Source of the DNA: Deltaproteobacteria bacterium
GTDB taxonomy: Bacteria > Desulfobacterota > Desulfobacteria > Desulfobacterales > GCA-2748835
Assembly: GCA_002748835.1 (NCBI GenBank)
Contig: PDTL01000014.1
Span: 23,838 to 87,837 of the forward strand
Length of the DNA stretch: 64,000 bases
Direction of reading: 5' to 3'
Positions 14,776-34,584 of this stretch are shown piece after piece (within the stretch, counting starts at the first letter, position 1; the number at the start of each line of letters is the position of its first letter). The notes under the pieces are model-generated. The model was not told the DNA's origin. It did no database searches and worked only from the letters and a program-made list of their open reading frames with translations. The position numbers and the translations under genes are program-made.

Positions 14776-14822
14776 ACGGGGTGACACGTTAAGGTAAGAC
14801 AGATTGCAGGCAGGTTTGTCAG

Positions 14823-18210: not shown

Positions 18211-19241
18211 TGGCCGTTGGGCGGTTGTCCGTTCTGGGTCTGCTGATCGGACTGCTGGCGTCTGATACGGCGGCCGGGTTCACCTGGCTGGGATATGAAA
18301 AAAACGCTGATTTCACTGCACCGGAATGTGTCCGGATTGATTACCGGATGCGCATCCGGGTTGAGGATGATGCTGATGCCGCGGCCCTTCGCCGGATGCC
18401 GCTTCCGCAAACGACGGGATACCGGAAAATCCTGGGGGCATTCGCACGGATTGATACCCGGCACACAGCGGACAGCGCAACGGTTGCAGACGGCTGCATT
18501 TGTATGACAACCGTCCGGCCCGGAGATGGGGTGGTTTACGGCTATACCCTTGTTCATGACGGCATTGGAAACGCGGGTGGTGCCGCAGACCGGCTGGTGA
18601 TTCCAGATCCCTCAGCCCCCTGCCGGGTGGTGTATACGGTGCAGTTCCCGTCCAGCGGTTTGTATCGATGGATCGAAGGCTCTGGCTGCAGCGCTGTGCA
18701 TACGGCGTCCGGAGATTGTTTCAGGTATGTGCGTGATGGGGGCGTTTGCCATCTTCCCGATCAGATTCGGGTGAGCTCCTGGGCATCCTGGGCCTGTGTG
18801 CGTAGGCAGTACGACGCCGCCTGGCCGGCAGACCCTCAGGGACTGATGGATCCTGCGGACCTGACCGGTGGTTCCCCTCCGGATCCGGAACGGCTCGCCT
18901 CCCAGCTTGCTGAACAGGTCGTCTATGAAATGGAACCGCGTGCCGGTCATCTGCATCAGCCGTCGAAACCGGCATCGGTGATGTCCCGGGGCCGGGGTGA
19001 CTGCAAGGATCTGGCCCTGCTGGTGGTGACGCTTTTAAGAAAATACGGCTTTAAGGCCGGATGTGTGCTGGCCGGAAACGACGGGTGCAGCACATTTCCA
19101 GACCCGCTGGTCTTCACCCATGCCTATGCGGCGGTGAAAACCGAAGGCGGTAAGTGCCTGTACCTGGATCCGGCCCGGAAATTGACATCGGTGGTGCCGG
19201 CAGAAGATTGGCTCCTGCCGCTTTCCCTGTGTGAGTATTGA
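18210..19241 (+). CDS. exported transglutaminase-like (Cys-His-Asp) domain protein
   Basis: The ATG at 18210 overlaps the tadB-like stop (TGATG) and is an internal Met of track ORF 18129. Signal-like N-terminus LSVLGLLIGLLASDTAAG. TGase-core pattern GRGDCKDLALLVVTLLRKYGFKA...FTHAYAAV...LYLDPA. Confidence 0.75.
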   Translation: MAVGRLSVLGLLIGLLASDTAAGFTWLGYEKNADFTAPECVRIDYRMRIRVEDDADAAALRRMPLPQTTGYRKILGAFARIDTRHTADSATVADGCICMTTVRPGDGVVYGYTLVHDGIGNAGGAADRLVIPDPSAPCRVVYTVQFPSSGLYRWIEGSGCSAVHTASGDCFRYVRDGGVCHLPDQIRVSSWASWACVRRQYDAAWPADPQGLMDPADLTGGSPPDPERLASQLAEQVVYEMEPRAGHLHQPSKPASVMSRGRGDCKDLALLVVTLLRKYGFKAGCVLAGNDGCSTFPDPLVFTHAYAAVKTEGGKCLYLDPARKLTSVVPAEDWLLPLSLCEY

Positions 19242-19273
19242 CCTTTGCTTACAGTTTATAGAGGAGTTACGCC

Positions 19274-22200
19274 ATGAAAACGCCAAAATGGTTGCATCTG
19301 GTGATTCTTGCCTTTTTTCTGTTCCAGACCCTGATGCCTGTACCGGCAATGGCCGCAAAAAAGTCAACGGAAAAAATCGTTCCGATTCCAGGTGGTTATG
19401 CCGTTGATTCGGCCGATTTTATGGATGGGATTGCATCGCTTGACCGGGACTTGATCCGAAGTTACTTGGCTTATATGGGCAAATCTGCGACCATTCGAGC
19501 CGGGATGCGCAAGCGGAGTGAGGAATTCAGTGAACTGCTGAAAGCCGGCGCCCCGCTGGTGCGTGTTCAGATCGCCGATCCCACCTATGCCTCACTTGCC
19601 AACGAAGCAGAACGCAGTCTTGCCTATGTGACCGATGCGCTTTCCCGTACAGAGCAAGATCATAACAAAAAAACAGAATCCCTTGAAAAGACGGTTCGCG
19701 CAGGTTTTTCCGGCAGCCGGCTTCCGGACGGCCTTCTCGGTAAGACCCGGCTGCTTGAAGACCTGTACCGACAGCAGGACACCCTGGTTCAGATGAAACT
19801 GAACATGGCGGCTAAGCTAACCGGTATCTATGACAATATTCGGGTTAACGGGAAGGTGTTTCCCCAGCCAGAAGCCGTGAAAACATGGCTGGCAGCCGTG
19901 GATGGCCTGATGATCGCCCTGGAGGCTCAGACCCTGGTTTTGAAACAGGAGACCGAGGCGTTTGAAGCGGAAAAACGGACGTATAACGAGGCTGCGCTGG
20001 CAGCGCTTTCCCTGGAACGGGAACGGACCCTTGCGCTGAAAGCGGAAAATGATCGCCAGATTGATTATCTGACATCCGTGGGGACGCCTTATACACGGGA
20101 TCAGGCTGCGCTGCTTTCCGGTGTTCAGGATGTCCTGGACTACCGGCTCAATGAAATAGAGGCACGGGAACGGGCGGTTGAGCAAGACGTATCCGGAACC
20201 GGTAACTTCCTGTATCTGCCCGAATCCCTCGATGCGGTCGCCGCCATCCGGCCGCTTGTGAACCGCTACCGGAACATCGCTTCGGGCTGGATTGAACTGA
20301 CCGGCGCCCGGATAGGTGACGCAGACCACCTGATCCGGGCCTTGGATGATGCCATTGCCGCCATGACCGATGAGTCGTCTCAGTTGTCCGCATGGCTGTC
20401 TACGGCATCCGGTGTTTACAGCCCTGAAGGAACGGCTGCCCTGAAACAGGGGCTTGAGACACGGTATGACGGGTTTCTGAATATCCTTATTGCAAACAGG
20501 GATGCTCTTAAGAAAGCCCGGAACGACCTCTCCAGCATCTCCTTTTCAGATCCGGATGCGCTCACCCGTGATGCGGCAGCCACCGCCCGCATTGTCCGGT
20601 TTAATCAGCTTGTTGAAGCAGCGATTGGCGGACTGGACGGGATCTCCGTGACGAGTTTTGTCATGGATGTGCGAACCACAGCCGACCTGGAATCTCTTGC
20701 AACAGCCATCGGACCTGGATCCCTTGAATCGGTGTTTAACGCCAGCGAGCAGCGTGCCCGCGCGATTTCGCAAGTAGCTGATCTGCTTGAGGCGCTTGAA
20801 ACGGGACTTACGGCTGATCGAGATCAGTCCGCACTGCTTCGAATGCTGGCATTGGATCTTGTATCTGAAGGAAAACGGATCTATCAGCAGAAATCCAGAG
20901 CCGTATCCCGGGCGTTGACGCACGCACCTTCGGGCAGCGGGAAGGTATATCGGTCATTTCTGGAAGGGACACAGCTTCATCTGTCCGGCCGATATGAAGA
21001 ATTGAAGGCCTATGATGCGGCCATACCTGCAGGTTTTTCTTCCCGCCTGACCGAGGCTGCCTGCCCCCTTTGCCTGGATACCCGGGTCTGGAATGACACG
21101 GCGCAGATCGGGACCCTGTTTCAGGAGCGGTTTGAAGAACTGGCAAAACTCGAACAGCTGGATCCGCTGCTGTCAGCCGCCTATCTCACTGAAACCGATC
21201 CCTACCGGGTGGCGGAACATCTGTTTGCGCTGTCTCTTGCCGTTGACAGCCCGCCTCTCATGACCCTGAAAGAAGACAGTATCGATGTCACCTTCGTGAT
21301 CGGTGATAAAGCAACTGCTATTTTAAACGTGGGAAAGACAAACAGCGTATCCGCCTCACGCCTGATCCCGGAAACAGATCCCTGGATTCAGGGGCCGTAT
21401 ATCGGATGGTCCTTTAACCCCAAAACCGCTTGGGGCTCGGAGAAAAAAAGGGTTGCTGACACGGGGGCAATGATCATTTCCGCCAGGAAAGGCTTTGCCA
21501 ACACCGCCAGTGAGATCCTTGAAGGTGCAAAGGTGATCGGCGGAAAGATCACGACGCGGCTTTCCGAATACCGGAAAAAAGCCGGTGAAGTGATTGAAAA
21601 AACAGGTGCAGGTCTTGTTAAGGCAAAAAATGCACTCTGGGATACAACCCAAAAGGCGGCAGCTGTCAGCTGGGATGTGATTAAAAATATCGGTACTCAG
21701 GCGTTTCTGGATGAACATGTGGATGCCCATGGAAATAAAACCTACAGTGTGGGGTGGATGAAACTGGTCGGTTACGGCCTTGGCGGCGCAGCCTGTGTTG
21801 TCACGGGTGGTTTGGCCTGCATTCCGCTGGCCGTTTCCGCGGGTGCTGCCGGGCTCAAGGGCGTCTTTGACACCATGGCCATGAAAAAATATAATATTAT
21901 TTCCGAAAACACCCAGTGGTATCTGAATACAGCAGTCGATATCGCGGATTTGATCGGCAGCGGTATTTTGAACATCAAAAGTGCCGGCAAGGCCTGGCAG
22001 GGTATGAGCAAAATGCATAAAGCCCTTGTGTTTTTAGGTCTGGACCCTGATAACGTCAAACATTTGGGGGAGCTGTTTTCCGTAAAAGCCTATAAAGGAC
22101 TGAAAACGATCTGGAAATATGTGGCAGAGGGCCGGTTTTCAGCCATCCGTTCTGTTTTGGAAAAATTCCGAATCCCTGTAAAAATGGCAGAGCGGTTTCT

Positions 22201-22918
22201 TAACGGTCTGAATGCGGGGAAGACCCTGTATGATGCGTACATGATGGTGACGGGACTTCCTGCGAAGCTTGCTGATTACTACACGTATGTGATCTCCCCC
22301 GCCGGATCCTTGCTCATGAATGGCGTCAAAAAATTGGCCTCCCTGGACCCGATGACCCTGCTGAAATACGGGCTGTTTTTAGGTCCGGGCTGGTCACCGC
22401 TTACGAACGGGACACCCCTGAATTGGTCCATGACCCCGCAGGATGCCCTGGATGCCTTGGGCCGGGCGATCGGATGGGCATACACGTCGGGTGATGCTGC
22501 TGTCAAATGGATTGCCGACCTGGTGATGGTCCATGAAGCACTGGCCTTAAATCCCATGTCGCCTGCAGCTCAGTCCTATCTGGAAAGCCTGATCGCGGCG
22601 TTTATCTCCCGATCCACGCTGGATACACTGAGCGGACTTCCGGATACGGTGTTCAGCGGCCTTTCTGCCGCAGATGATTATATCGACCTGTTGAGCCGAT
22701 ATGGGGAATTTATGCTAGCGGCGCCCTGGGCGATTGCCGATGATTACGCTGGAGGGGATGTTGTCCATTCAGAGACGGGCACGCGCCTGACCGGTGGTTC
22801 GGCAACCGATACCGGGACCGCCGCGAAGACAGCGACGCCTCCGAAACATCGCGCACCCACGACCTACAGGAAACCTGTACCCGTTAAACCGGGTAAGATG
22901 CGAAAACTGCCGTGGTAA
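19274..22918 (+). CDS. large (1214 aa) secreted/membrane-associated protein of unknown function
   Basis: Signal peptide LHLVILAFFLFQTLMPVPAMAAKK. The first ~700 aa are Leu/Ala/Glu/Arg-rich and look helical. A Gly/Ala-rich hydrophobic hairpin VGYGLGGAACVVTGGLACIPLAVSAGAAGL spans about 21765-21860. The C-terminal tail is basic and Pro/Lys-rich. I see no catalytic motif. Confidence 0.7.
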   Translation: MKTPKWLHLVILAFFLFQTLMPVPAMAAKKSTEKIVPIPGGYAVDSADFMDGIASLDRDLIRSYLAYMGKSATIRAGMRKRSEEFSELLKAGAPLVRVQIADPTYASLANEAERSLAYVTDALSRTEQDHNKKTESLEKTVRAGFSGSRLPDGLLGKTRLLEDLYRQQDTLVQMKLNMAAKLTGIYDNIRVNGKVFPQPEAVKTWLAAVDGLMIALEAQTLVLKQETEAFEAEKRTYNEAALAALSLERERTLALKAENDRQIDYLTSVGTPYTRDQAALLSGVQDVLDYRLNEIEARERAVEQDVSGTGNFLYLPESLDAVAAIRPLVNRYRNIASGWIELTGARIGDADHLIRALDDAIAAMTDESSQLSAWLSTASGVYSPEGTAALKQGLETRYDGFLNILIANRDALKKARNDLSSISFSDPDALTRDAAATARIVRFNQLVEAAIGGLDGISVTSFVMDVRTTADLESLATAIGPGSLESVFNASEQRARAISQVADLLEALETGLTADRDQSALLRMLALDLVSEGKRIYQQKSRAVSRALTHAPSGSGKVYRSFLEGTQLHLSGRYEELKAYDAAIPAGFSSRLTEAACPLCLDTRVWNDTAQIGTLFQERFEELAKLEQLDPLLSAAYLTETDPYRVAEHLFALSLAVDSPPLMTLKEDSIDVTFVIGDKATAILNVGKTNSVSASRLIPETDPWIQGPYIGWSFNPKTAWGSEKKRVADTGAMIISARKGFANTASEILEGAKVIGGKITTRLSEYRKKAGEVIEKTGAGLVKAKNALWDTTQKAAAVSWDVIKNIGTQAFLDEHVDAHGNKTYSVGWMKLVGYGLGGAACVVTGGLACIPLAVSAGAAGLKGVFDTMAMKKYNIISENTQWYLNTAVDIADLIGSGILNIKSAGKAWQGMSKMHKALVFLGLDPDNVKHLGELFSVKAYKGLKTIWKYVAEGRFSAIRSVLEKFRIPVKMAERFLNGLNAGKTLYDAYMMVTGLPAKLADYYTYVISPAGSLLMNGVKKLASLDPMTLLKYGLFLGPGWSPLTNGTPLNWSMTPQDALDALGRAIGWAYTSGDAAVKWIADLVMVHEALALNPMSPAAQSYLESLIAAFISRSTLDTLSGLPDTVFSGLSAADDYIDLLSRYGEFMLAAPWAIADDYAGGDVVHSETGTRLTGGSATDTGTAAKTATPPKHRAPTTYRKPVPVKPGKMRKLPW

Positions 22919-22941
22919 ACACCACAGGAAAGGAGCCACAA

Positions 22942-23466
22942 ATGACGGCAAAAAAAACGATGGTTCTGCTTTTGGGGATGCTGGTGTTGAACGCCTGCGT
23001 CCAGAATCGGCCCCGCCCGGCAGCAACGCAACCGCCAGCAAAAACAGGCGGAGAAACGGTTGCCATTAACCTGGATCATGCCTCGCTTCGTACGGAAATC
23101 ATAGGGGCAAACGGGTATGCCCTCGCACTTTTTTACAACAATCAGTACCGGCCCTCTGCTGAGCTCGAGGCGATTTTTGACGCGCTTTCAGTCAAATACA
23201 AAGACGCTGCCGTGTACGGAAAATTTTTCTGGTATCTGGATTGGAACGGGGAACAGTACGGACTGGACATGCTACCCACGGTCATTCTCTTTAACAATGG
23301 AGAAGAGATCGATCGGATCCGGGGAATGGACACGGACAAGAACCGGATCCAAAAGGACATGGATCTCTGGCTGAGGAAAAATGTCGTGAATCCGCAAGGG
23401 GACGGGTTCTCGGGTGCGTTCACCTATCGGTTCAACAATACCTATACCCTGTCGATTTCAAACTGA
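22942..23466 (+). CDS. thioredoxin-fold lipoprotein lacking the CxxC motif
   Basis: ATG at 22942 after AGGAGCC. Lipobox LVLNAC. The Trx-like layout is ALALFYNNQYRPSAELEAIFDAL...LPTVILFNNGEEIDRIRG, with NNQY where WCGPC would sit. Confidence 0.55.
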   Translation: MTAKKTMVLLLGMLVLNACVQNRPRPAATQPPAKTGGETVAINLDHASLRTEIIGANGYALALFYNNQYRPSAELEAIFDALSVKYKDAAVYGKFFWYLDWNGEQYGLDMLPTVILFNNGEEIDRIRGMDTDKNRIQKDMDLWLRKNVVNPQGDGFSGAFTYRFNNTYTLSISN

Positions 23467-23482
23467 TACAAGGACCTGGTGC

Positions 23483-25189
23483 ATGGCAACAGCCCGCGAC
23501 ATACTGAACGCTGACATCCGGCGAATTGCCGGAATGAACGGTATTGATCCCCTGCCGGAAGCCGGCAGCATCGAGGGGCTGTTGTCCGACCACCTGATCG
23601 AATCCGGGCGTGCAGCGGCAGATGCCGTGAATGTCATGCTGGAAGAGGCCACCGGCGTGCCGGCACTGGATCCGTCCCGCGTGTCGTTTTCCGATGCGTT
23701 CATCTCTCTGGCAACGGCCCTGATCCCGCGGGATTTGCTGGTGGCTCTTGGGGTTTTCCCGGTGCGGCTGAATAAACACCGGCTTCATCTGGTCATGGCG
23801 GTTCCCGGTGATTCAGAGGCGATACACCGGATTGAGGCGTGGACCGGTTCTCTCGTGGTCCCGTATGTCTGTCATTCACGGGGAATCATCAGTGCCATTG
23901 AGCGGATTCTGCCGGCAGCCGATGCAGTAGGAGAGATACCTGATGATCTGGACGCGCTGACCCTGGCGGCTGCCGGAACCGTTTCCGCAAAGGTGTCGGA
24001 CCAGGTGGAGACGCTGCGGGTGCTCACGGATGTGCCGCTGATCCGATTGGTGCAGGGGCTGTTAGCGGCTGCCGTTGAACGGGGTGCCAGTGATATCCAT
24101 ATTGAACCGGGACGGGAAGGGTGCCGTATCCGGATCCGGAAAGACGGTGTCCTTAACCGGTTCCATACCACGCCTGCCGTTTTGCGGGAGCCCATCATGA
24201 ACCGCCTGAAGCTGATGGCGGATATGGATGTGACAGACCGGCGAACGCCCCAGGACGGGAGTATTTCCTTTGGTGTGATTCCCGGCCGGGAGATCGACCT
24301 GAGGGTCTCTTCCCTGCCCACGGTGAACGGCGAAAAAGTGGTGCTCCGGATTCTGGACCGCGCGGATGTTGGGTTTGACCTGGAAGCTCTCGGCATGGAA
24401 GTTCCAGATCTGAAACGACTGAACCGCTCGATCTCTCAGCCCAGCGGCCTGGTCCTGGTGACAGGACCTACGGGCAGCGGGAAAACCACCACCTTGTATG
24501 CGATCCTGAATCATTTGAATCAAACGTCTGTGAATATCGTAACTGCGGAAGACCCTGTGGAATACCGCCTGGAGGGGGTTACCCAGGTGAACTGTTCCGA
24601 GGAAAGCGGGGTTTCCTTTGCCGATGCCCTGCGGTCGTTTCTCCGGCAGGATCCGGATATTATCATGGTGGGCGAAATCCGGGATCTGGAAACCGCCGAG
24701 TTTGCTGTCAAGGCCGCCATGACCGGCCATCTTGTTTTTTCGACCCTTCACACCATGGATGCGGTGGGAGCGGTTCAGCGCCTGGTCAATATGGGGGTAC
24801 CGCCGTACCTGATCGTCTCTGCCAAAGTTACGGTGGTGGCCCAACGGCTCCTTCGCCGGATCTGCGAAAACTGCCGGGTTGTGGATGAAGGCAGGGCAGA
24901 GGCGCTGAGCGTTCTTTCCATTGACAATCCAGCGTCGCTTTCCCTGTTTCGGGGCAGTGGATGCGATGACTGCAACGGAACCGGATACAGCGGGCGGCTC
25001 GGCGTCTATGAACTGTTTGCGGTGTCTGAAGCGGTGTCTGAATTGATTTTAAAGGATGCATCATCCGAAGCCTTGCGGAAAGTGGCGAAATCCGAAGGGA
25101 TGATTACCCTTCGGGAAGCCGCGCTTTTGAAACTCAAAGACGGCCGTACGACACTGGATGAAGTGCTACGGGTGACCATGGACATGTAG
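23483..25189 (+). CDS. GspE/PilB-family secretion ATPase with N-terminal T2SSE_N-like domain and tetracysteine motif
   Basis: ATG at 23483, an internal Met of track ORF 23414. Walker A VTGPTGSGKTTTLYA, Asp box TAEDPVEY, Walker B DPDIIMVGEIRD and His box TGHLVFSTLHT. Cys4 cluster CENC...CDDCNGTGYSGR. Confidence 0.9.
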   Translation: MATARDILNADIRRIAGMNGIDPLPEAGSIEGLLSDHLIESGRAAADAVNVMLEEATGVPALDPSRVSFSDAFISLATALIPRDLLVALGVFPVRLNKHRLHLVMAVPGDSEAIHRIEAWTGSLVVPYVCHSRGIISAIERILPAADAVGEIPDDLDALTLAAAGTVSAKVSDQVETLRVLTDVPLIRLVQGLLAAAVERGASDIHIEPGREGCRIRIRKDGVLNRFHTTPAVLREPIMNRLKLMADMDVTDRRTPQDGSISFGVIPGREIDLRVSSLPTVNGEKVVLRILDRADVGFDLEALGMEVPDLKRLNRSISQPSGLVLVTGPTGSGKTTTLYAILNHLNQTSVNIVTAEDPVEYRLEGVTQVNCSEESGVSFADALRSFLRQDPDIIMVGEIRDLETAEFAVKAAMTGHLVFSTLHTMDAVGAVQRLVNMGVPPYLIVSAKVTVVAQRLLRRICENCRVVDEGRAEALSVLSIDNPASLSLFRGSGCDDCNGTGYSGRLGVYELFAVSEAVSELILKDASSEALRKVAKSEGMITLREAALLKLKDGRTTLDEVLRVTMDM

Positions 25190-25208
25190 CGGGAAGGATA
25201 AACGAAAC

Positions 25209-26087
25209 GTGGAAAATCTCATTGTCTTTGGCGGCGTGGCAGCGTTTGCACTGGCTGTGGCCGTATGCGTCTATCATCTGTTTCCGTCCGGAACCGATGA
25301 GGCCATTCGCGGCCACATGGAGGGACCGGGGACTTCTGCAGGCGAGACGGCGCAGTTTGTGGCAAAGTTCCGTCTGTTTATCGAGTTGCTGAATCCGGTG
25401 GTCTCCATTCTGCCGATACAGGGATACCGAAAACGGATTCAAAAATACGCCATTTCTGCGGGCGTGGAACGGGAATTGAGCGCAGAAGATTTTATCGGTC
25501 TGCAGCTCACCATTACCCTGCTCCTTCCCTTGCTTCTGTACACAGCCTTTAAGAATCCCCTGTATTCCAGCATCGGGGCTGCTGTGGGCCTGATTTTTCC
25601 TTATTACTGGCTTTGGGACAAGATGAATACCCGCCAGAAAGCCATTCGTTCGACGATCCCCGACATTCTCGATACCCTGTCCCTTGCCGTGGCAGCCGGG
25701 CTTGATTTCAATGCCGCTATCCGGAAAATCTGCGACATTTATGCGGATGACGGCAACCCCTTTACCGAAGAGCTGCACCTGATGCTGCAGAACATTACCC
25801 TAGGACGCTCCCGGGAAGAGGCGCTCCGGGAAATGGCTGCTCGAATTGATATGACACCGGTCTACTCGTTTGTCTCCATTCTGATTCAGGCGGAAAAAAT
25901 GGGGAGCAGTATTGCCGATACCCTGAAGTCCCAGGCAGAGCGCTACCGTGAAGATCGGTTTCTGGAGGCGGAACGGGCCGGGGCGGTGGCAGCCCAGAAA
26001 CTTTTGGTGCCCATGATTATTTTTATTTTTCCCTTGCTGTTTGTTGTTATTTTTGGGCCGTATGTACTTCAGTTTATTTATAAGTAA
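25209..26087 (+). CDS. tadC: TadC-like platform protein (single T2SS-F domain)
   Basis: GTG start. T2SSF pattern DILDTLSLAVAAGLDFNAAIRKI...ALREMAARIDMTPVYSFVSILIQAEKMGSSIADTL. It has a C-terminal TM pair. Confidence 0.85.
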   Translation: MENLIVFGGVAAFALAVAVCVYHLFPSGTDEAIRGHMEGPGTSAGETAQFVAKFRLFIELLNPVVSILPIQGYRKRIQKYAISAGVERELSAEDFIGLQLTITLLLPLLLYTAFKNPLYSSIGAAVGLIFPYYWLWDKMNTRQKAIRSTIPDILDTLSLAVAAGLDFNAAIRKICDIYADDGNPFTEELHLMLQNITLGRSREEALREMAARIDMTPVYSFVSILIQAEKMGSSIADTLKSQAERYREDRFLEAERAGAVAAQKLLVPMIIFIFPLLFVVIFGPYVLQFIYK

Positions 26088-26122: not shown

Positions 26123-27511
26123 ATGCACTGGATACTTGAAATTACAGATGAAAATCAACCGGCCCAGGTGATGGAACTGGCCCCGGGTGAGTACCGCATC
26201 GGCCGGGCAACGGTGTCTGAGGTGCATCTGGATGACCGGTCCGTGTCCAAACTCCATGCAACTCTGCATGTTTCAACGGACGGCGTGCTCACGGTTCGGG
26301 ATGAGAAAAGCGCCAACGGCACCCGGGTGGATGGCAAACCGGTGATTGAAAAGCGACTTGCCGGCAGGGCGGAAATTCAGATCGCCGGATTCCGGTTGAT
26401 GCTGTCGCCGCCGGATATCGTTCTTGGAAAACCGAAAAAAGGCTTCCTGCCTGATGCACGGATGATCTTTATTGCGGTGATGGTGCTGTTTCTGTCTGTG
26501 GTCATACTGACGTCTCACCTGCAGATGAAAGGGACGCTCAAGGCGTTTCGCGAAAAAGGCTCGCTCTCCCACGGCGCCACGCTGGTGACCTGGCTGGGAG
26601 AAATGAACCGGTATTTTTTGTCCGGGAAGCATCATGACCAGCTGACCCTGGATCCGGTGGCATCGGAAACCGGTGTGTTGCAGGCCTTTATCGTGGGTAG
26701 TACCGGCCGAATCCTGAAACCCCTGGAGTATTTCGGCAATTATCTGGAGATGGCGGATCTCGACGCCATCCTGACATCGGGTACCCTGACCATTCGATCT
26801 CAGGGGCCAGATGAGACGCTGATGATCTATCCCATTATCGGTCCATCATATCCCTATGGCGCGGCGGTTATCCGTTTCCGGACCTCGGACTGGGGACGGG
26901 ATCTGCCGGCTCCGGGCAGTGGACAGTTGATGCTGTTTCTGATTTCAGGAGGGCTGATCAGTCTGGTGACGGGTCTCTGGCTGTATCGCCAATTGTTGTC
27001 TCCTGTGCGGCTGCTGACTGCAGATCTGGACCGCGCACTTACGGAAAACGACACCCGGCTCCAGACACCACCGCCCACAGACGACCATCTACCCCTCTGG
27101 GAAGCGGTCAGCCGTCTTCTGGTCAGAGTGGCCTATCAGAAAAAAACGGAATCCGCGATCCCTGCAGGTTCACACCGTCCAGCCGCGCCCCCACTATCTG
27201 CGCCTGAATGCCGTTTATCGACCCATCCCTACCCGGCCTGCCGTGTGGCAACAGACAGTTACCTAATCAAGGCGTGGAATCCGGCCTTTAAAGAACGATT
27301 TTCATCTGAAAAAGAACTGACAGCCGACACCCACCTTATTGAGGTGATTCAACACCCGGAGCTGGTCAATATGGCATTTGATCTGCTCCAGTCAGAAAAT
27401 CCAAAACCCGCAATCGCCGGCACCTGCAAGCTGAGCCTGTATCCGTCGGCAGATGATTCCGGCACGTCAGTGGTGCTCTCGTTTCAGGAGATAGAAGATG
27501 CAAACAGGTAA
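26123..27511 (+). CDS. FHA-domain membrane protein (FHA - TM - extracytoplasmic region - TM - C-terminal domain)
   Basis: FHA core YRIGRATVSEVHLDDRSVSKLHATL...RDEKSANGTRVDG. TM segments MIFIAVMVLFLSVVILT and LMLFLISGGLISLVTGLWLY. The 3' end overlaps the next gene by 14 nt. Confidence 0.8.
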   Translation: MHWILEITDENQPAQVMELAPGEYRIGRATVSEVHLDDRSVSKLHATLHVSTDGVLTVRDEKSANGTRVDGKPVIEKRLAGRAEIQIAGFRLMLSPPDIVLGKPKKGFLPDARMIFIAVMVLFLSVVILTSHLQMKGTLKAFREKGSLSHGATLVTWLGEMNRYFLSGKHHDQLTLDPVASETGVLQAFIVGSTGRILKPLEYFGNYLEMADLDAILTSGTLTIRSQGPDETLMIYPIIGPSYPYGAAVIRFRTSDWGRDLPAPGSGQLMLFLISGGLISLVTGLWLYRQLLSPVRLLTADLDRALTENDTRLQTPPPTDDHLPLWEAVSRLLVRVAYQKKTESAIPAGSHRPAAPPLSAPECRLSTHPYPACRVATDSYLIKAWNPAFKERFSSEKELTADTHLIEVIQHPELVNMAFDLLQSENPKPAIAGTCKLSLYPSADDSGTSVVLSFQEIEDANR

Positions 27512-28400
27512 TTCCGCCGCAGGCAAACATGCTTCAGTGGCGCTGGTGATGACCGCCGGTAGCGCCAAAGGGCGTTCCTTTGCGCTGAATGAAGGTGGGG
27601 TGTACCGGATTGGCCGGTCACCGGAATCTGAAATCGCCCTGGATCCCCAGGATAAAAGTGTGTCCCGGCTGCATGCGCGTGTGCAGGTGAAATCCGGGAG
27701 GATTTTGTTTGCAAACGCCAGCCAGACCAACCCGGCTGTGGTGAACGGCAAGCTTGCGCTGAAAACGCTGGAACTGAGAAACGGCGATACCCTTCGCATT
27801 GGCGCTTCCGTTTTTCAGCTTCACACCGCTCGCACGGCAGGAGGGCCAGATAAAAAAACAATAAAGACAGGTGAGGAAAAACGACCGGTGCTGCTCTACG
27901 CAGTGGCGGGCGTGGTTGTGCTGATTGCGGTGCTGGCCGGTGTCAAACGATTTATATCTGATCGTGGCGGCGGGAGTGGAGATGACACACTGACTATCAG
28001 CAGCAACGCGTCGGATCCGCTGCTTGAAGGTGACGGGCTTCCCATGGCTTCCCTTTCGAATGCGCCGGGAAAGGGCGGCAATACACAGGCGGATTCGCTG
28101 TTTCACCAGGGGCTTTTTTTCTATGACGCCGGAAAACTCAAAAATGCCATTGACCGTTTTGAGGCGGCGCTGAAGGCGCAGCCTGATCACACCCTTTCCG
28201 AGCAGTGGCTGATGAAGACAGAATCGGAGCTGGCTGCCAGTGTGGATGTGCATTATCAGAAAGCCCTGCAGCACATGAAGTATATGCGTTACGGTGAAGC
28301 TGTCACCGAGTTTACCATCGTGGTTCAGCTGTCCCAGGATCCGGCAGATGAAAAATTTATGAACGCAAAAGAACAGCTGCTCAAGTTGAAAGGAAAGTAG
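27498..28400 (+). CDS. FHA-domain membrane protein with C-terminal TPR-like region
   Basis: FHA core YRIGRSPESEIALDPQDKSVSRLHARV...ASQTNPAVVNG. TM VLLYAVAGVVVLIAVLAGV. TPR-like segment ADSLFHQGLFFYDAGKLKNAIDRFEAALKAQPDH. Confidence 0.8.
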   Translation: MQTGNSAAGKHASVALVMTAGSAKGRSFALNEGGVYRIGRSPESEIALDPQDKSVSRLHARVQVKSGRILFANASQTNPAVVNGKLALKTLELRNGDTLRIGASVFQLHTARTAGGPDKKTIKTGEEKRPVLLYAVAGVVVLIAVLAGVKRFISDRGGGSGDDTLTISSNASDPLLEGDGLPMASLSNAPGKGGNTQADSLFHQGLFFYDAGKLKNAIDRFEAALKAQPDHTLSEQWLMKTESELAASVDVHYQKALQHMKYMRYGEAVTEFTIVVQLSQDPADEKFMNAKEQLLKLKGK

Positions 28401-28404
28401 AGAG

Positions 28405-29901
28405 TTGATCACGCTTTCAATATCGTTTGCAGATGGCAGTCAGGAAACACGGGAAGCGCTGCCGGAAAACACGGTGATGATCGGTCGGGCCGATGACTGT
28501 GATGTTCAGCTGGCCGGAGGCCGGGTGTCTCGGAATCATGCCCGGATTTACAACGAAGACGGTCGATGGATGGTTGAGGATCTCAAATCGACGAACGGGC
28601 TTTCCGTCAATGATATTCAATCGACCCGATATGCACTCAATAACGGGGACGTGATCCGCATCGCGGAGAACCGGATCCGGGTGACCCTGCCTGTGGAAAC
28701 CGGCGGCGCAGAAGATAGCGGTGTTGATCCGGATGCCACCTGTATTGAACCGGTCATGGGAGACCCGGAACCGGATGCCACCTTTGTGGTGAGCCGTGAG
28801 GCGATGATGGGGTCTGTTACCGGAAAGGGCGCTGCCACAGGCAACGTGGCCGCCTTTGTTCGGGAAAAACCGATTCTGGCACTGGTTGGCGCATTGCTTT
28901 TGGTGATCCTTATCAGCATAGTCGTGTTGCTCAGCGGAAATGAAAACCCTGCACCGGAGACACCCAAATTGGCAGTTGTGCCTGAGGATGCGGACACCGC
29001 CAAGGCTGCGTTGGAGCAGAAACGAAAAATCGGGGCCTATCTTCAGCGAGGGGAAATGCTGCTTGCTGCCGGTGAAGTGGAAAATGCCCTGATCCGGTTT
29101 GACGCCATCCTGGAGCTGGATCCGGGACATCGGGCGGCAGCGACACTTGCCGCCCGGTGCCGGCGTGAGATCGATGCAAGAGACGCAGCGCGCAGGCAGG
29201 CGGAAGAAAAGGCGTCCCTGGCAGCGGAAAAGCTGAATAAGGGTCTGGAACTGGCCCGGTATTATCACAGTCACCGGGAATGGGATCAGTGCATTGCCAT
29301 GCTCGATTCCTTGGCTGGCCAGATTGCAGAAGGGTCTGCTGAGGCCAAAGAAGTGTCGGCCTTGCGCCAGACCGCATCTGATGCGCTGAAAAAGGCAGCC
29401 GCTGCCCGGAAAAAACAATCTGAAGTGACGGGCGCCATCCAGCGCCAGGTGAACAAAGGATCCGGTTACTATAAAAAACGGAACTATTACAAGGCGCTTC
29501 TTGCCTGGCGTAAAGGGGTGAAGATTTCTCCGAACCATCCCCTTGCGCTTGAAATAAAAGATCAGATGATTCCAAAAGCCGTTTCGGCCCTGAATCAACG
29601 GGTGGCTGGTGATTACCAGCGGGCGGTTCAGTATAAGAACCGCGGGGATGACGGAGAAGCTCTGATCTATTTTGACCGTGTGGTCAATCGGTGGCCTGAA
29701 TACAAGGATGCGGCACGTCAGCGCAACGCAATCGAAAAATGGCTGGAAGATGAGGCGAAGCGTCTGTACCAGGAAGGGAAAGTTTACGAAGGCATCGGAC
29801 AGATGGACAAAGCAATTCGCAAATGGGAGGCTGTGCTGGAAAAGATGCCGCTGAAATCGAATGCCTATTATAAAAAAGCCGCTGCCAAGCTGGGGCGCTA
29901 A
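28405..29901 (+). CDS. FHA-domain membrane protein with extended TPR region
   Basis: TTG start. FHA core MIGRADDCDVQLAGGRVSRNHARI...DLKSTNGLSVND. TM ILALVGALLLVILISIVVLL. Several TPR-like repeats extend to the C-terminus. Confidence 0.8.
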   Translation: MITLSISFADGSQETREALPENTVMIGRADDCDVQLAGGRVSRNHARIYNEDGRWMVEDLKSTNGLSVNDIQSTRYALNNGDVIRIAENRIRVTLPVETGGAEDSGVDPDATCIEPVMGDPEPDATFVVSREAMMGSVTGKGAATGNVAAFVREKPILALVGALLLVILISIVVLLSGNENPAPETPKLAVVPEDADTAKAALEQKRKIGAYLQRGEMLLAAGEVENALIRFDAILELDPGHRAAATLAARCRREIDARDAARRQAEEKASLAAEKLNKGLELARYYHSHREWDQCIAMLDSLAGQIAEGSAEAKEVSALRQTASDALKKAAAARKKQSEVTGAIQRQVNKGSGYYKKRNYYKALLAWRKGVKISPNHPLALEIKDQMIPKAVSALNQRVAGDYQRAVQYKNRGDDGEALIYFDRVVNRWPEYKDAARQRNAIEKWLEDEAKRLYQEGKVYEGIGQMDKAIRKWEAVLEKMPLKSNAYYKKAAAKLGR

Positions 29902-29908
29902 CGATGGG

Positions 29909-31663
29909 ATGTCAGGGGGGCAGATGACAACCGATACCGTGTCCGTATTATCCAATCTTATCGGTGACAAATATCATGTGGGAGAGGTGATCGCCCGGGG
30001 CGGGATGGGCGAAGTTTACACCGGCACCCATGTGGCGTTGAACCGGAAGGTGGCCATCAAGATTATCCGTACCCATCTTTCCTCAGACGCCCAGATCCGG
30101 GAGCGGTTTCTCCGGGAAGCCCGGCTCACGGCCCAGCTGACCCATCCGAATATCATCGAAATCTTTGATTTTGGCGGCAATGAGGCCTTTGACTACATCA
30201 TCATGCCCTATATTGACGGGATCACCCTGAAAGATCGTCTGACTGGAACCGGACCCGTGCCGGCGGACGAAACCCTGAAACTGGTCCGGCCCGTGGTCGA
30301 TGCCCTGGCCCTGGCCCATGACAGGGGGGTGGTGCATCGGGACGTGAAACCGAGCAATATCCTGGTAACCTCAGGCGGGATTCCCATTCTGACGGATTTT
30401 GGCATCTCAAAGAATCTGAACGATTCTGACATGACCCTGTCGGACACCATGCTGGGCGCTCCCCGATATATGAGCCCCGAACAGATTCGCGGCGAGCGGG
30501 TGGACGGGCGCAGTGATCTTTATGCCATCGGGATCATTCTGTATGAAATGCTTTGCGGATCTCATCCGTTCAAGGGGGATCAGGTGGCTGCCATCTGCTA
30601 TCAGCAGATGCATGAGGTGCCGTCGCCTCCGGATACGGTGAACCCCGCGATACCGGAGTGGTTATCCGGACTTGTCATGCAGCTGGTGGAAAAAAAACCG
30701 GAAGACCGGTTTCTGGATGCCCATGCACTGCTCAAGGCCATGGATGCAAAAGGCGATGTCGCAGCGATCCGTTCTCTCGGGTCAGCGCAAGACATCATGG
30801 CCGGTGACAGGACGATCGTGGGGGACGCAACCCGTGTCGGAGATGCGACGGTGGTCGGCCCTGAACCGGCAGCCGTTTCCCTGAGCGATGCCACACAGAT
30901 TGGTGAAGCGACCGAAATCGGTGGTCCGGTTGTCCATGCGTCGGCAGGCATACCGGCGGCCGGACCCAACCGGAAACGCTGGTATGCCATTGCCGGTGCC
31001 GTGATGGGACTGCTAATCATCATCGGTATCGCCGGAAAGCTGCTCAGGTCTCCTGATGCAGAAAAATCTGTGGAAACGCCCATAAAAGCTGAAGCACCGG
31101 TATCATCCGAGGTCGACACAGGCGGTGTGGTATCGCCTGGCTCCGAAGATCGTGCGGAATTGGAACCGCTGACTGAACCGGTGACCCGGAAAGATCTGAT
31201 TCAGGCCATTCAACAGCTGCCTGTGACAGGCGCACAGGCCAGCGGCATTCATATCGACTTGAGCCAGCCATCCTTCCGGGTGGGCGACCCCATTGCCTAC
31301 CGCCTGAAATTTGACAGGCCCGGTTACGGGGCCGCAGTGCTCCTGACGACGTCCGGGGAGCTCATCTGTCTGTACCCGAGCGGCAGCCAGTCAGGCGCTT
31401 TGGTGGAACCCGACCGTGTGTACCCGGTTCCCCATACATCCCTGGGCATTGATCTTGAAGTGGTGGGGCCGGAAGGCAAAGAACGGGTTGTTGCGTTTCA
31501 CAGCACTGTGCCGGTGATCGAACCGGCTGTGAGTGCGGACGCTCCCTTTACAGAGATCACGGATGCAACCCCGAAGCTGGTCAAGGCCTTGCATGATGCA
31601 GTGAAGAAATCCGGGACTGGCATGAGCATTGCGGTCACAGACTATTTTGTCTTTACCCCCTGA
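29909..31663 (+). CDS. Hanks-type Ser/Thr protein kinase with TM and DUF4384-like ectodomain
   Basis: Kinase motifs GRGGMGEVY, VAIK, HRDVKPSNIL, DFGISK and APRYMSPEQ. TM WYAIAGAVMGLLIIIGIAG. The C-terminus FRVGDPIAYRLKFDRPGYGAAVLLTTSGELICLYPS...GKERVVAFHS resembles DUF4384. The start is ATG 29909 or 29924; the track start at 29861 overlaps the upstream gene. Confidence 0.9.
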   Translation: MSGGQMTTDTVSVLSNLIGDKYHVGEVIARGGMGEVYTGTHVALNRKVAIKIIRTHLSSDAQIRERFLREARLTAQLTHPNIIEIFDFGGNEAFDYIIMPYIDGITLKDRLTGTGPVPADETLKLVRPVVDALALAHDRGVVHRDVKPSNILVTSGGIPILTDFGISKNLNDSDMTLSDTMLGAPRYMSPEQIRGERVDGRSDLYAIGIILYEMLCGSHPFKGDQVAAICYQQMHEVPSPPDTVNPAIPEWLSGLVMQLVEKKPEDRFLDAHALLKAMDAKGDVAAIRSLGSAQDIMAGDRTIVGDATRVGDATVVGPEPAAVSLSDATQIGEATEIGGPVVHASAGIPAAGPNRKRWYAIAGAVMGLLIIIGIAGKLLRSPDAEKSVETPIKAEAPVSSEVDTGGVVSPGSEDRAELEPLTEPVTRKDLIQAIQQLPVTGAQASGIHIDLSQPSFRVGDPIAYRLKFDRPGYGAAVLLTTSGELICLYPSGSQSGALVEPDRVYPVPHTSLGIDLEVVGPEGKERVVAFHSTVPVIEPAVSADAPFTEITDATPKLVKALHDAVKKSGTGMSIAVTDYFVFTP

Positions 31664-31738: not shown

Positions 31739-33820
31739 ATGAAAATACATGTCAAACCATGGATGTATGCGGCCCTTGCTGCCATCTGTACGGTCATCGT
31801 GGGGGCGGGCGCGGCGGCAGCTGATGAAAACGTCCTGATTTTGGTCAACCCCCAGGCCGGATCCGGCAGCGGGGTGAGCGTCCAGGTGGTGAACGGGGCT
31901 GATGGCGGCGTGGATACCATGGCCATTGAAAACGAACTGGCCCGGGGTCTGATGGAGAACGGGTATACGGCGACACTGGGCAGCGAGCTCATGTCCGGCC
32001 GGGATCTGAGTGAGAAGGAAGTCGAAAAGGCACGCACCGGGAACATGCAGCTGCTTAAAAAAGCTGCGGCCCTTCACGATGCCGGCGTATTTTGCGTGGC
32101 GAAGGTTTCTTCCCGCATGTCCACGGAATCGGTTCTGGGTATGGAGATGACACGGGCAGACCTTACGCTCTCCTACCGGATCTACGACACCATCACTGGA
32201 AAAAATATTGCCCGGAATGTACTGAAATTTTCAAACGCCGACCGGTCTCCGGGTGCGACCTTGAATGCCCTATATGCGAAGATGGCAGACGGATTTGCCG
32301 CAGATGTGGCTGGAAAAGTGGCTAAGGATGTTTCTTCCAGCCGCCGGAAAGCCATGGCAAAAGCCAAAAAATCGTACAGGAAAAAAGTGGTGGTAGCGGC
32401 AAAACCCAAGTCAAGACCCAAACCCGCGGCTGCGCCGTCACCGGCCATAACGGAAAACCTGAAAATTGTCATTGTGAATCCCCCCCTGGGGCGCGGCTTT
32501 ACGATTAAGGAAAAAAGGAAGACCATCTCCCTTGAAGGGATGGTCGTGGATCCCAGCGGTGCCGGCGTGTCCCATGTCATGGTCAACAACACTGCCGCCA
32601 ATCTCGCTTCAGACGGGCGCTTTACCTACCCGCTGACCCTGAGTGCCGGCGCTAATACCATCGATATTCTGGCCGTGAACCGGCAGGGAAAAACCGCGCG
32701 CAAACAGATCACCCTGAACAGGGCGTTAGACACCCTGCCACCGGTGATCCGAATCACTCAGCCGGTGATTACCCGTGGGTTTAAAACCGTTGTTAAACCC
32801 AAGGCCTCTTATTTGAAAGTCAGCGGCACGGTGACCGACGACAGTGAAATTCTTTTTGTGAAAATCAATGGGTCACCTGTGGTTCTGGGTTCTGGAGGCG
32901 CATTTTCCACCAATCTGCCGCTGGATTCTGCAGCGCGCTCGGAAATCAGGGTGGCGTCGTCAGATGTGCACGGGAATGTGAGCCATAAAGAGATTCCCAT
33001 CACTCGGGGTGTGGCAGCTACATCCTCACCCGCACCCGCTTACCCGTCCGCTGCCGGATTCCGGCCGGTGCTCTGGGGACTTTCGGTGGGGGTGTCTGAT
33101 TATAAATCCGGAATGATTGATCTCGAATATGCGGATGATGACGCCAAGCTGATTGCGGATTTTTTCAGTCGCAAAGGAAAAGGGATTTTTCACAAGGTCC
33201 AGTTTAAGACTCTGCTGAATACCGATGTTACCCGGGACAGCATCATTGATGCCATGACCACCCACCTGGGAAAAGCCGGACCCGATGATGTGGTGATGAT
33301 TTTTGTGGCCGGCCACGGGATCAAGCACCGGCAAACCGGTTCTTATTATTTTGTGCCGTCAGACGCGGACGGTGACTCCCTCATCTCCAGAGGGCTGCGC
33401 ATGTCCGATTTTGAGGAGTCGATCAAAATTCTCTCCCAGAACGTGAACAAGGTGATCGTTGCCATGGATACCTGCCACTCGGGTGCCATGCAGATCGGCC
33501 TCCGGGGTGCGGAATCCGAAAGCCTTGCCGAGAAGCTGAAAGCCGCATCCGGCCTCTATATTCTCGCAGCATCAAAGAGCGGTGAAAGCTCCATGGAAGG
33601 AAAAGACTTTCGGATTGACGGAGACAAGGGGCACGGCGTATTCACGTATGCCCTGATCAACGGTATGCGCGGTGCTGCGAATTTTGACCAGGATACCTAT
33701 GTCTCTTTGAACGAGGTTTTTCATTATGTGGCAAAAGAAGTACCGGTGCTGACCAACGGACGGCAGCACCCGTATCAGAAAGTGGATGGGAATGATCTCC
33801 CCCTGGTGCGTTTGAAATAG
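31739..33820 (+). CDS. exported caspase-like (peptidase C14) protein with N-terminal LpoB/CsgG-like module and Ig-like middle region
   Basis: ATG at 31739, 8 nt after AGGGAGA. Signal peptide WMYAALAAICTVIVGAGAAAA. C14 pattern LSVGVSDYKS...YADDDAKLIADFF...VMIFVAGHGI (His) ...VIVAMDTCHSGAM (Cys). Confidence 0.85.
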   Translation: MKIHVKPWMYAALAAICTVIVGAGAAAADENVLILVNPQAGSGSGVSVQVVNGADGGVDTMAIENELARGLMENGYTATLGSELMSGRDLSEKEVEKARTGNMQLLKKAAALHDAGVFCVAKVSSRMSTESVLGMEMTRADLTLSYRIYDTITGKNIARNVLKFSNADRSPGATLNALYAKMADGFAADVAGKVAKDVSSSRRKAMAKAKKSYRKKVVVAAKPKSRPKPAAAPSPAITENLKIVIVNPPLGRGFTIKEKRKTISLEGMVVDPSGAGVSHVMVNNTAANLASDGRFTYPLTLSAGANTIDILAVNRQGKTARKQITLNRALDTLPPVIRITQPVITRGFKTVVKPKASYLKVSGTVTDDSEILFVKINGSPVVLGSGGAFSTNLPLDSAARSEIRVASSDVHGNVSHKEIPITRGVAATSSPAPAYPSAAGFRPVLWGLSVGVSDYKSGMIDLEYADDDAKLIADFFSRKGKGIFHKVQFKTLLNTDVTRDSIIDAMTTHLGKAGPDDVVMIFVAGHGIKHRQTGSYYFVPSDADGDSLISRGLRMSDFEESIKILSQNVNKVIVAMDTCHSGAMQIGLRGAESESLAEKLKAASGLYILAASKSGESSMEGKDFRIDGDKGHGVFTYALINGMRGAANFDQDTYVSLNEVFHYVAKEVPVLTNGRQHPYQKVDGNDLPLVRLK

Positions 33821-33870
33821 GCTTATCGACTGTTCATTGAAACATGGAAAGATGCGGAAAGGAGTGGCGC

Positions 33871-34584
33871 ATGCGCCTTGAGAAAAAAGAAGAAAGACTA
33901 AAACAGCGTCTCAGCTGGATGCTGTTGTTCCTTATTTTCGTGCTGACCACAGGATGCGTTGCCAGCAGTCAGCCGTCAGCACCGCCGCTGCCGCCGGCCA
34001 ATGATACGCAGGTGAATATGCGGGATCTTCCCTATCCGAACGGAAAACGGGCGCTTGTTGCCATTGCCGGTTTTGAGAACAAGAGTACCTATTCTGCTGA
34101 CCGACTCTGGGATACATCGTCCCGGCTTCTCGCCTCCGCATTGATACAGGCCAACTATTTCCGGGTGGTGGAATGGGAAAAAATGAAGCAGCTCTTTGAC
34201 TGGGACACACTCTCCAACGCCAGCCTTGTGAAATCGCCGGACGATCTGAAACGGGCTCAGCGGATTCTTTTGTGTGAATATTTTGTCACCGGCACCATCA
34301 CGTTCTTCAATATCAAGCAGCATGCCCAGGTGAGCGCCATGTCCAAATCCAAAGTACTGGATACCACGGTCCGTGTCGATTTGCTGCTGCAGGACGCACG
34401 CACCGGAGAATATCTGAGCGCATCCAACGGTGAGCACACGGTGCGCCAGTCGTACACAGCAGGCATGTCCGGCGGTCAGACCGGCAGCTGGGACAGCCAC
34501 TCCGGTGATGAAGCCCTGTCACAGGCCATTAACAAAGCCCTGTATAACCTGGTGTTGAATTTTCATTCCAGGCGACGTGGATAA
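33871..34584 (+). CDS. CsgG-family lipoprotein
   Basis: ATG at 33871 after AAGGAG. Lipobox VLTTGC. CsgG-like core VAIAGFENKSTYSADRLWDTSSRLLASALIQANYFRVVEWEKM...YFVTGTITFFN...VRVDLLLQDARTGEY. Confidence 0.75.
   Translation: MRLEKKEERLKQRLSWMLLFLIFVLTTGCVASSQPSAPPLPPANDTQVNMRDLPYPNGKRALVAIAGFENKSTYSADRLWDTSSRLLASALIQANYFRVVEWEKMKQLFDWDTLSNASLVKSPDDLKRAQRILLCEYFVTGTITFFNIKQHAQVSAMSKSKVLDTTVRVDLLLQDARTGEYLSASNGEHTVRQSYTAGMSGGQTGSWDSHSGDEALSQAINKALYNLVLNFHSRRRG

Follow-up and report, generated by a model that had tools for sequence, protein, structure and literature searches.

Three-gene clusters encoding a lipoprotein together with homologues of CsgG and GNA1162 are widespread and have no assigned function; in Acinetobacter baumannii the cluster affects poly-N-acetylglucosamine (PNAG), Cup pili and biofilm, and its products have been proposed to form a multimeric outer-membrane complex for the assembly of matrix or surface structures (bioRxiv 10.1101/2021.05.19.444899). 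Of the bacterial caspase homologues, orthocaspases are described as cleaving after basic residues (PMC6426788), and the DUF4384 domain is known both as a recurrent accessory domain of orthocaspases (PMC7475262) and as an accessory domain of one bacterial kinase family (bioRxiv 10.1101/2025.01.12.632604). Here we describe a locus in which several of these families occur together, in a 64,000-nucleotide stretch (the window) of a Deltaproteobacteria bacterium (assembly GCA_002748835.1, contig PDTL01000014.1, positions 23,838 to 87,837 of the forward strand). It encodes an exported caspase-like protein (protein A), a CsgG-family lipoprotein directly downstream of it (protein B) and a GNA1162-like protein (protein C). 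The N-terminal domain of protein A (the N-module) is predicted from its structural model to be a very divergent form of the CsgG/GNA1162/PelC/FlgT-N-like fold, and the pairing of proteins A and B is conserved in related genomes. The overall picture, in which our confidence and our doubt are about evenly balanced, is of a periplasmic orthocaspase-type protease docked at an outer-membrane lipoprotein assembly, and accessory to a Desulfobacterales-type envelope cassette; the uncertainty mostly concerns how the protease docks and what it cuts. The features on which this picture is based are as follows.

31739..33820, + strand: protein A, exported caspase-like protein (open reading frame, ribosome-binding site and start, Pfam C14 and Ig domains, orthologue alignment)
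31739..31822, + strand: predicted Sec signal peptide of protein A (read from the sequence; AxA-type sites in orthologues)
31823..32317, + strand: N-module, an alpha/beta domain of about 165 residues (AlphaFold2 model, Foldseek)
32318..32509, + strand: Lys/Arg/Pro-rich linker of protein A (orthologue alignment, columns about 240-300; length varies among orthologues)
32510..33043, + strand: two Ig-like domains of protein A (Pfam: Glucodextran_B / Big_6-like)
33086..33775, + strand: Peptidase_C14 domain (Pfam; invariant H86, C139, D137 and R149)
33871..34584, + strand: protein B, CsgG/HfaB-family lipoprotein (Pfam CsgG, lipobox, AlphaFold2 model, ribosome-binding site)
3144..3869, + strand: protein C, GNA1162-like periplasmic protein (Pfam PF05643; family profile against 4hrv)

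The full open reading frame of protein A runs from 31694 to 33820 and would specify 708 residues. The ATG at 31739, giving a protein of 693 residues (GenBank PIE71414.1, annotated as 'hypothetical protein' in a Deltaproteobacteria metagenome-assembled genome, MAG), is the likelier start, because GGGAG lies 9 nt 5' of it and because the equivalent Met is the start in all orthologues aligned; the preliminary description of this DNA had chosen the better of the two. The N-terminus consists of a basic n-region (MKIHVKPW), about 20 hydrophobic residues and then a cleavage site between AAA and DE, and an AxA-type site is present just ahead of the first mature strand in 13 of 13 aligned orthologues. 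Protein A is thus predicted, as had been suggested earlier from its signal peptide, to be extracytoplasmic. A scan of positions 29800-35100 for promoters and terminators returned sites no more numerous than in shuffled sequence.

Residues 465-694 of the 708-residue frame match Peptidase_C14 (PF00656) with an E-value of 2e-16 and 60.8 bits, against a cut-off of 21.4. The His of AGHG (codon 33314-33316) and the Cys of DTCHSG (codon 33473-33475), which had been picked out by eye as the C14 catalytic dyad, proved to be invariant in alignments both with distant caspase-domain proteins and of seven orthologues. Equally invariant in the orthologue alignment are an Asp two residues N-terminal of the catalytic Cys, and an Arg 10 residues C-terminal of it, within a variable Gly-rich loop. 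An Asp at this position is also found in the Arg/Lys-specific metacaspases and paracaspases. The sole NCBIfam match of protein A, to caspase_w_EACC1, lay below the cut-off of that family. A word-index homologue search with the full-length protein gave only the identical protein and distant caspase-domain proteins, and sequence searches of the PDB with full-length protein A and with a caspase profile were uninformative. The shorter orthologues carry a single Ig-like domain.

For the N-module a word-index search gave no match, and an exhaustive HMMER search was needed to find relatives, of which there were just 14 among 1.84e9 representative proteins. The AlphaFold2 model built from these relatives (predicted local distance difference test, pLDDT, 80.4; predicted TM-score, pTM, 0.72) has the element order b1-a1-b2-a2-a3-b3-b4-b5-a4. 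Comparison of this model with the PDB by Foldseek retrieved FlgT (8z5n, 3w1e), HpaA, CT253 and GNA1162 (4hrv, E 7.5e-6), and further CsgG (4uv2, 4uv3, 4q79), PelC and LptE; for the best chains of FlgT, GNA1162, CsgG, PelC and LptE the E-values ranged from 8.8e-7 to 2e-4 and the query TM-scores (TMq) from 0.44 to 0.60. The model of protein B, built from a 43-sequence alignment (pLDDT 84.6), has an element order equal to that of the N-module, and both models match GNA1162 4hrv, CsgG 4uv2/4uv3, PelC and FlgT (Foldseek E 4e-9 to 2e-5, best chains). The top 50 matches of each model were solely outer-membrane lipoprotein or flagellar-ring structures, namely CsgG, GNA1162, PelC, FlgT, LptE, HpaA, CT253 and two similar lipoproteins, with probabilities of 0.97-1.00 throughout. 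The family profile of protein C matches GNA1162 chain 4hrv_A by sequence (E 6.7e-5), and after it PelC, weakly. Since the same set of solved structures is matched by all three regions, they appear to converge on one outer-membrane-associated lipoprotein fold.

Pairwise BLASTP among the N-module, the core of protein B and protein C gave no match. The N-module matched nothing in Pfam even at E<=10, and its profile matched nothing in the PDB by sequence. Clean profile-profile (hhalign) comparisons of the three modules gave probabilities of 0.8-10%, which are not significant: 1.5-10% for those involving the N-module, and 0.8-1.9% for clean alignments of the B family with the C family. A B-family versus C-family profile match of 97.5% probability was rejected as an artefact, because one row of the C alignment was misassigned: L010:12473-13105 (related loci are denoted here by L and a number) is a diverged B-type protein (hidden Markov model, HMM, E 2.7e-8). 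The proposal in the preliminary description that the same small module occurs three times in the window therefore stands by fold, from the models of the N-module and protein B and the profile match of protein C to 4hrv, and does not stand by sequence, either in BLASTP or in clean hhalign comparisons. The by-eye pattern on which it was founded, a strand, a helix ending in GY and a second strand, falls in the same register in the models and in the weak hhalign alignments, which bring together strand 1, the helix ending in GY, strand 3 and the hairpin strand 4-TG-strand 5; and alignments of each of the three families have an invariant Gly in the turn between strands 4 and 5. In related loci, one region each of L037:10803-12290, L037:4514-5326 and L012:10681-12147 matches several Pfam families (CsgG, FlgO, LpoB, TolB_N, DUF3280 and FlgT), which is consistent with these families forming one fold superfamily.

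An earlier scan of genome contigs with a single protein gave no match, but a scan covering a single genome of each species, with an alignment of the caspase domain as query, yielded 30 genomes, in which the caspase domains are 55-67% identical. By their lineage labels 26 of these are Desulfobacterales-type, two are given as delta-proteobacteria only, one as Thermodesulfobacteriaceae and one as Pseudomonadota, and MAGs of Desulfosarcina, Desulfococcus and Desulfatirhabdium are among the matches; 28 of the 30 have sequence downstream of the caspase gene and are informative for its neighbour. In 22 of the 28 the gene immediately 3' of the caspase encodes a member of the same subfamily as protein B, and in four more it encodes another protein above the Pfam CsgG cut-off (L022, which is the same contig as L009, L026, L037 and L043). 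Adjacency of caspase and CsgG-family genes, proposed from the one genome, thus extends to 26 of 28 informative species-level genomes. L032 has a sub-threshold CsgG-like protein beside the caspase, detected by the B-family HMM. Around the six N-module relatives whose contexts were inspected, a CsgG-Pfam gene or a diverged equivalent lies just 3' of the caspase in every case.

The open reading frame of protein B opens at 33844, and its likely start is 33871 rather than 33844, because GGAAAGGAG lies 6 nt upstream. The protein matches Pfam CsgG (PF03783) with an E-value of 3e-11 and 43.4 bits against a cut-off of 20.8, and it has a lipobox, LTTGC, whose Cys (codon 33955-33957) is invariant in 43 homologues, so the earlier assignment of this gene to a CsgG-family lipoprotein is borne out. 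There are 182 close homologues, annotated at source as 'CsgG/HfaB family protein'. A PDB sequence search with the single sequence of protein B was uninformative.

Where a locus extends far enough to include them, the pair is mostly accompanied by protein C, a MacB-type pump and a U387-like protein. These are encoded in the window as follows.

3931..5094, + strand: U387, exported protein of 387 residues (locus comparison; candidate cargo or substrate)
5187..9970, + strand: MacB-type tripartite exporter (Pfam; conserved beside B and C in related loci), comprising
5187-6599, + strand: TolC-like OEP (Pfam)
6596-8059, + strand: membrane-fusion protein (Pfam)
8059-8721, + strand: ABC ATPase (Pfam)
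8558-9970, + strand: MacB/FtsX permease, open reading frame (Pfam: MacB_PCD + FtsX)

Protein C matches the Pfam GNA1162-like family (PF05643) with an E-value of 6.5e-11 and 42.6 bits against a cut-off of 25.9. Its signal peptide ends ...VAGPVSG before EK and has no Cys in the signal region, and its orthologues have AxA-type sites; members of the GNA1162-like family are described as putative lipoproteins, and the window protein lacks this feature. A PDB search with the single sequence gave no match, whereas the family profile matched 4hrv as described above. The gene for protein C adjoins that for protein B in most related loci. In U387 a hydrophobic, Gly/Ala-rich linker joins a conserved N-domain of about 190 residues to a variable C-domain, for which there is a weak DUF2135 match in the window and a Lipocalin_4 match at the orthologous position in L002 (9694-10704). 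In the N-domain, identity to U387-like proteins is 41-49%, and 56% in the case of a short, end-truncated fragment from L008. They are found in nearly all pump-bearing related loci and on the short contigs L005, L017, L024, L025, L027, L042 and L044, with two paralogues in three distinct loci; no match was found in L015. The layout of U387 resembles that of cargo or effector families with interchangeable C-termini. The same four pump genes occur together in related loci.

In its commonest form the larger unit reads, in order, Trx-like protein, GspE-type ATPase, T2SSF, three FHA proteins, Ser/Thr kinase-DUF4384, caspase and B, followed by C, one or two U387-like proteins, TolC-like OEP, membrane-fusion protein, ABC ATPase and MacB/FtsX permease. 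The window contains the whole set in a single same-strand run (3144-34584), with the C/U387/pump block (3144-9970) on the opposite side of a Tad-like cluster (10182-26087) from the kinase/caspase/B block, which flanks its other end. Of four loci sampled through protein B, two (L011, L014) have the caspase and two (L012, L013) lack it. L012, from a Nitrospirota MAG (GCA_049323875.1), has in the caspase's position, directly after B, a 488-residue FlgT_N protein (10681-12147) that carries the N-module (HMM E 8e-16) without a protease domain; L013 has the cassette without caspase and without N-module. Because L012 and L013 have the cassette without it, the caspase is accessory, and the core consists of B and C together with the U387-like protein and the pump. 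The domain specific to the cassette is the N-module, on which the protease rides as a passenger.

The remaining genes of the same-strand run belong to a putative signalling set and to the Tad-like cluster.

29861..31663, + strand: Ser/Thr kinase with one transmembrane helix (Pfam; topology read from the sequence)
about 31274-31513, + strand: extracytoplasmic DUF4384 domain of the kinase (Pfam; topology read from the sequence)
26123..29901, + strand: three FHA-domain membrane proteins, two with TPR repeats (Pfam)
10182..26087, + strand: Tad/Flp-like apparatus (Pfam)

The Tad-like cluster begins with genes for Flp, TadE, TadG, RcpC, a secretin, a TadZ-TadA fusion and a TPR-T2SSF protein, and continues with a transglutaminase-like protein (18129-19241), a 1214-residue open reading frame (19274-22918), a Trx-like protein, a GspE/MshEN ATPase and a second T2SSF protein. 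It has two secretion ATPases, the TadZ-TadA fusion (14823-16886) and the one of GspE/MshEN type (23414-25189). Neither Pfam nor NCBIfam matches the 1214-residue frame, and BLASTP against the related loci fetched gave nothing for it. In its surplus of FHA proteins the window brings to mind the contact-killing Kil system of Myxococcus, which is also Tad-like (PMC8460266). Upstream of the FHA genes, related loci likewise carry GspE, T2SSF and sometimes Trx-like genes, and the order kinase-FHAx3-GspE-T2SSF is kept in 11 of 30 species-level loci. A DUF4384 protein adjoins the caspase in 17 of 30, standing alone in L008, L010/L032 and L041, and none is present in the caspase-less cassettes L012 and L013. 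The triad of C14, CsgG-like and DUF4384-kinase genes, whose recurrence was to be checked, was found in 12 of 30 species-level genomes. The preliminary description had proposed for the pair a substrate linked to the upstream machine; the link to kinase-DUF4384, FHA and Tad genes is present in about 40% of loci, and the conserved partners are instead protein C, the U387-like protein and the MacB-type pump with its TolC-like duct.

Some further features of these loci may be recorded here. The window encodes, 406 bp downstream of the protein B gene (34991-37195), a DUF3141 (alpha/beta-hydrolase-like) domain fused to TerB, which is probably outside the system because it is conserved in no related locus. 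Genes for tRNA-His(gtg) and tRNA-Arg(tcg) (547-710) precede the cassette by about 2.4 kb, and between these and the cassette lies a minus-strand transporter/acyltransferase-like open reading frame (955-2841). In L011 (1-3994), from a 6.7-Mb Desulfospira MAG, the cassette stands beside type VI secretion genes (ClpV-like, VgrG, DUF4123) and not Tad/FHA genes, with genes for a kinase and a PP2C phosphatase running divergently. L010 (2779-3060), from a 4.6-Mb Desulfobacterales MAG, has a Pfam match to the magnetosome protein MamI about 7 kb upstream of the caspase, and this organism may be magnetotactic.

At the inner face of the outer membrane, solved members of the CsgG/GNA1162/PelC/FlgT fold form rings or plugs, as in the CsgG nonamer, the PelC dodecamer, the FlgT ring and LptE. 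Because they act in this way, it is tempting to suggest that the N-module docks the protease on an assembly of B and C, near the TolC-like duct and under the outer membrane, through contacts between domains of the same fold. By analogy with metacaspases and paracaspases, which share the Asp two residues before the Cys, the protease would cleave after Arg or Lys. The invariant Arg 10 residues past the Cys is a candidate site of autoprocessing, and the Lys/Arg-rich linker that follows the N-module a possible site of release. The most plausible substrates would be U387-like proteins before their export, or the DUF4384 domain, the sensor that the neighbouring kinase exposes to the periplasm. For the sub-type represented by the window, the process may be coupled through the kinase and the three FHA proteins to the Tad-like machine. 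A more elaborate and quite doubtful version, to which we give little credence, is that B, C and the N-module co-assemble as a hetero-oligomeric ring under the outer membrane, placing the caspase at the mouth of the MacB/TolC-type exporter as a maturation or sortase-like enzyme for cargo with a shared N-domain and interchangeable C-domains, its firing controlled by a Kil-like machine of Tad, FHA and Ser/Thr-kinase proteins. If true, it would amount to an envelope system for secretion and processing that has not been recognised before, and would supply a first function for the CsgG/GNA1162 cluster.

Several points weigh against the picture of a docked periplasmic protease. TM-scores for the fold matches of the N-module and protein B are only moderate (0.4-0.6), the fold of protein C is assigned through its sequence profile and not through a model, and BLASTP and profile-profile comparison give no significant sequence-level homology among the three modules. 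Contact of the N-module with B or C is a matter of inference, and the activity, specificity and substrate of the protease are predicted. In L040 the caspase has no CsgG-like neighbour within the 1.3 kb available. The caspase and CsgG-like pair occurs without the pump in L009/L022, L043, L010/L032 and L026, from which it follows that the pump is not obligatory for the pair. Finally, all the related source genomes are MAGs of anaerobes.

The pump-less pairs also lend some support to a different reading, close to that of the preliminary description, in which protein B oligomerises into an outer-membrane pore of the CsgG type, protein A either processes substrate for it in the periplasm or is the passenger, and the processed substrate exits through B. 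In its favour are the lipobox and the above-threshold Pfam match, and the first rank of membrane-form CsgG (4uv3, E 3.8e-9, TM-score 0.50) among the structural matches of the B model, ahead of GNA1162, CT253, PelC, FlgT and HpaA; moreover the b3-b4 hairpin of the monomer model is long (39 residues) and amphipathic, comparable with b3-TM1-b4 of CsgG, and might take the part of TM1. Against this, the structural match to CsgG has only about 17% identity, and the B-subfamily profile does not find curli CsgG among PDB sequences. In CsgG the TM2 hairpin is reportedly of about 25 residues, and a constriction loop is said to lie between b1 and a1; in the monomer model of protein B there are 11 residues between b5 and the C-terminal helix, at the site of TM2, and six in the b1-a1 loop. 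The same-fold relatives PelC, GNA1162 and FlgT are not pores, the cassette encodes its own TolC-like exit duct, and no CsgA/B/E/F-like Pfam families were found among the open reading frames scanned in 3144-37195. The short TM2 and constriction segments, together with the failure of the profile to find CsgG, count against the pore, which we consider unlikely. It is far harder to believe that the threefold module and the gene adjacency are a coincidence of a common small alpha/beta fold with the gene order of one genome. The absence of significant sequence similarity among the modules, the modest TM-scores and the loss of the one strong profile score to a misassigned row would all suit such a coincidence; yet the top 50 Foldseek matches of both models are of one structural kind, the N-module HMM also matches a non-caspase protein in the same cassette in another phylum (L012), and chance adjacency is excluded by synteny across the 26 of 28 informative genomes. 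This explanation we regard as extremely improbable.

The kinase and its neighbours suggest another possibility, that of a signalling module in which the periplasmic caspase acts on or with the DUF4384 domain of the kinase, the FHA proteins read the output and control the Tad-like machine, and B and C merely position the protease. DUF4384 tracks the caspase and not the cassette core, adjoining the former and being absent from L012 and L013; the kinase-FHAx3-GspE-T2SSF order recurs as noted above; the domain is a known accessory both of orthocaspases and of a kinase family; and the Myxococcus Kil Tad-like system is likewise FHA-rich, its authors suggesting a signalling cascade (PMC8460266). However, DUF4384 went undetected in at least nine caspase loci (L015-L017, L019/L023, L020, L022, L024 and L043), FHA and Tad genes are absent from many loci, and both a cleavage site and an interaction of DUF4384 with the protease are hypothetical. 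As a full account of the locus it seems to us rather improbable. That protein A is a cell-death or anti-phage defence caspase, lying in an envelope cluster by chance, is very improbable indeed. Its C14 domain does match a PADLOC caspase model (E 7e-11), and the kinase matches PD-T4-6 kinase models, but these are generic-domain matches, and B, C and U387 have none. An export signal and an envelope-type N-module are present in all orthologues, about 30 genomes have envelope or export neighbours, and protein A carries no fused sensor domain, whether NTPase, SAVED, TIR or another.

Extracytoplasmic clan CD cysteine peptidases acting at outer-membrane complexes have a precedent in PorU of type IX secretion, which in an anaerobe is held at an outer-membrane complex and processes exported cargo. 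PorU is C25-like rather than C14 and serves a different secretion system, and no CTD-type cargo signal was identified here. The Myxococcus Kil Tad-like apparatus (PMC8460266) can be likened to the window by description only: it too has FHA-domain proteins in unusual number, together with predicted lipoproteins of the outer membrane and numerous unknown genes. The word 'caspase' is absent from the main text of that paper, in which CsgG and MacB were not looked for. Bacterial orthocaspases and other C14 proteins with accessory DUF4384 or FGE-sulfatase domains share with protein A the C14 domain, the His/Cys dyad and DUF4384 as a recurrent partner. They differ in that the protein A family is exported, that the CsgG-fold N-module and Ig domains replace modules of WD40 or NACHT type, and that DUF4384 is here on a neighbouring kinase and not on the protease.

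Curli CsgG of E. coli (4uv3, 4uv2, 4q79) shares with protein B the family PF03783, a lipoprotein signal and the best fold match. The two are otherwise remote, protein B having low identity to CsgG, no profile-to-sequence match and a much shorter TM2-length segment and constriction loop, and the cluster having no curli subunit, CsgE or CsgF genes among the frames scanned. PelC (5t0z, 5t10, 5t11, 9h80) is of the same fold class, and is matched by the models of the N-module and protein B as well as by the profile of protein C. It reportedly forms a dodecameric, non-pore periplasmic lipoprotein ring that serves a separate outer-membrane duct, the PelB porin. By analogy a PelC-like arrangement, with the TolC-like protein as the duct, is the one favoured here. 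There are no Pel genes at this locus, the TolC-like duct is part of an ABC pump, and the ring is hypothetical.

All the components described here come from known families, whereas their combination and the N-module family are absent from the literature searched; nothing relevant linking CsgG-family proteins with caspase homologues or orthocaspases was found in the searchable literature. The CsgG/GNA1162 gene cluster is widespread in Gram-negative bacteria without an assigned mechanism, and bacterial caspase homologues are mostly without known substrates. Fusion of a divergent CsgG-fold domain to an exported C14 protease ties these two puzzles together, and offers concrete partners for both, in the binders of the N-module and the targets of the protease. 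It suggests that in anaerobic sulfate reducers caspase-type proteolysis outside the cytoplasm belongs to an envelope device for export or signalling. The closest described system remains the three-gene cluster (D1G37_12595-12605 in A. baumannii; the GNA1162 locus in N. meningitidis), in which likewise a CsgG/HfaB-family lipoprotein gene lies beside a GNA1162-like gene. The window departs from it in that its GNA1162-like protein has no lipobox Cys and that the middle lipoprotein of the cluster was not found. A third domain of the same fold is here fused to a C14 protease, and the locus is enlarged by a MacB-type pump, by an exported protein with a variable C-terminus and, in many of the related loci, by a kinase/FHA/Tad-like set.

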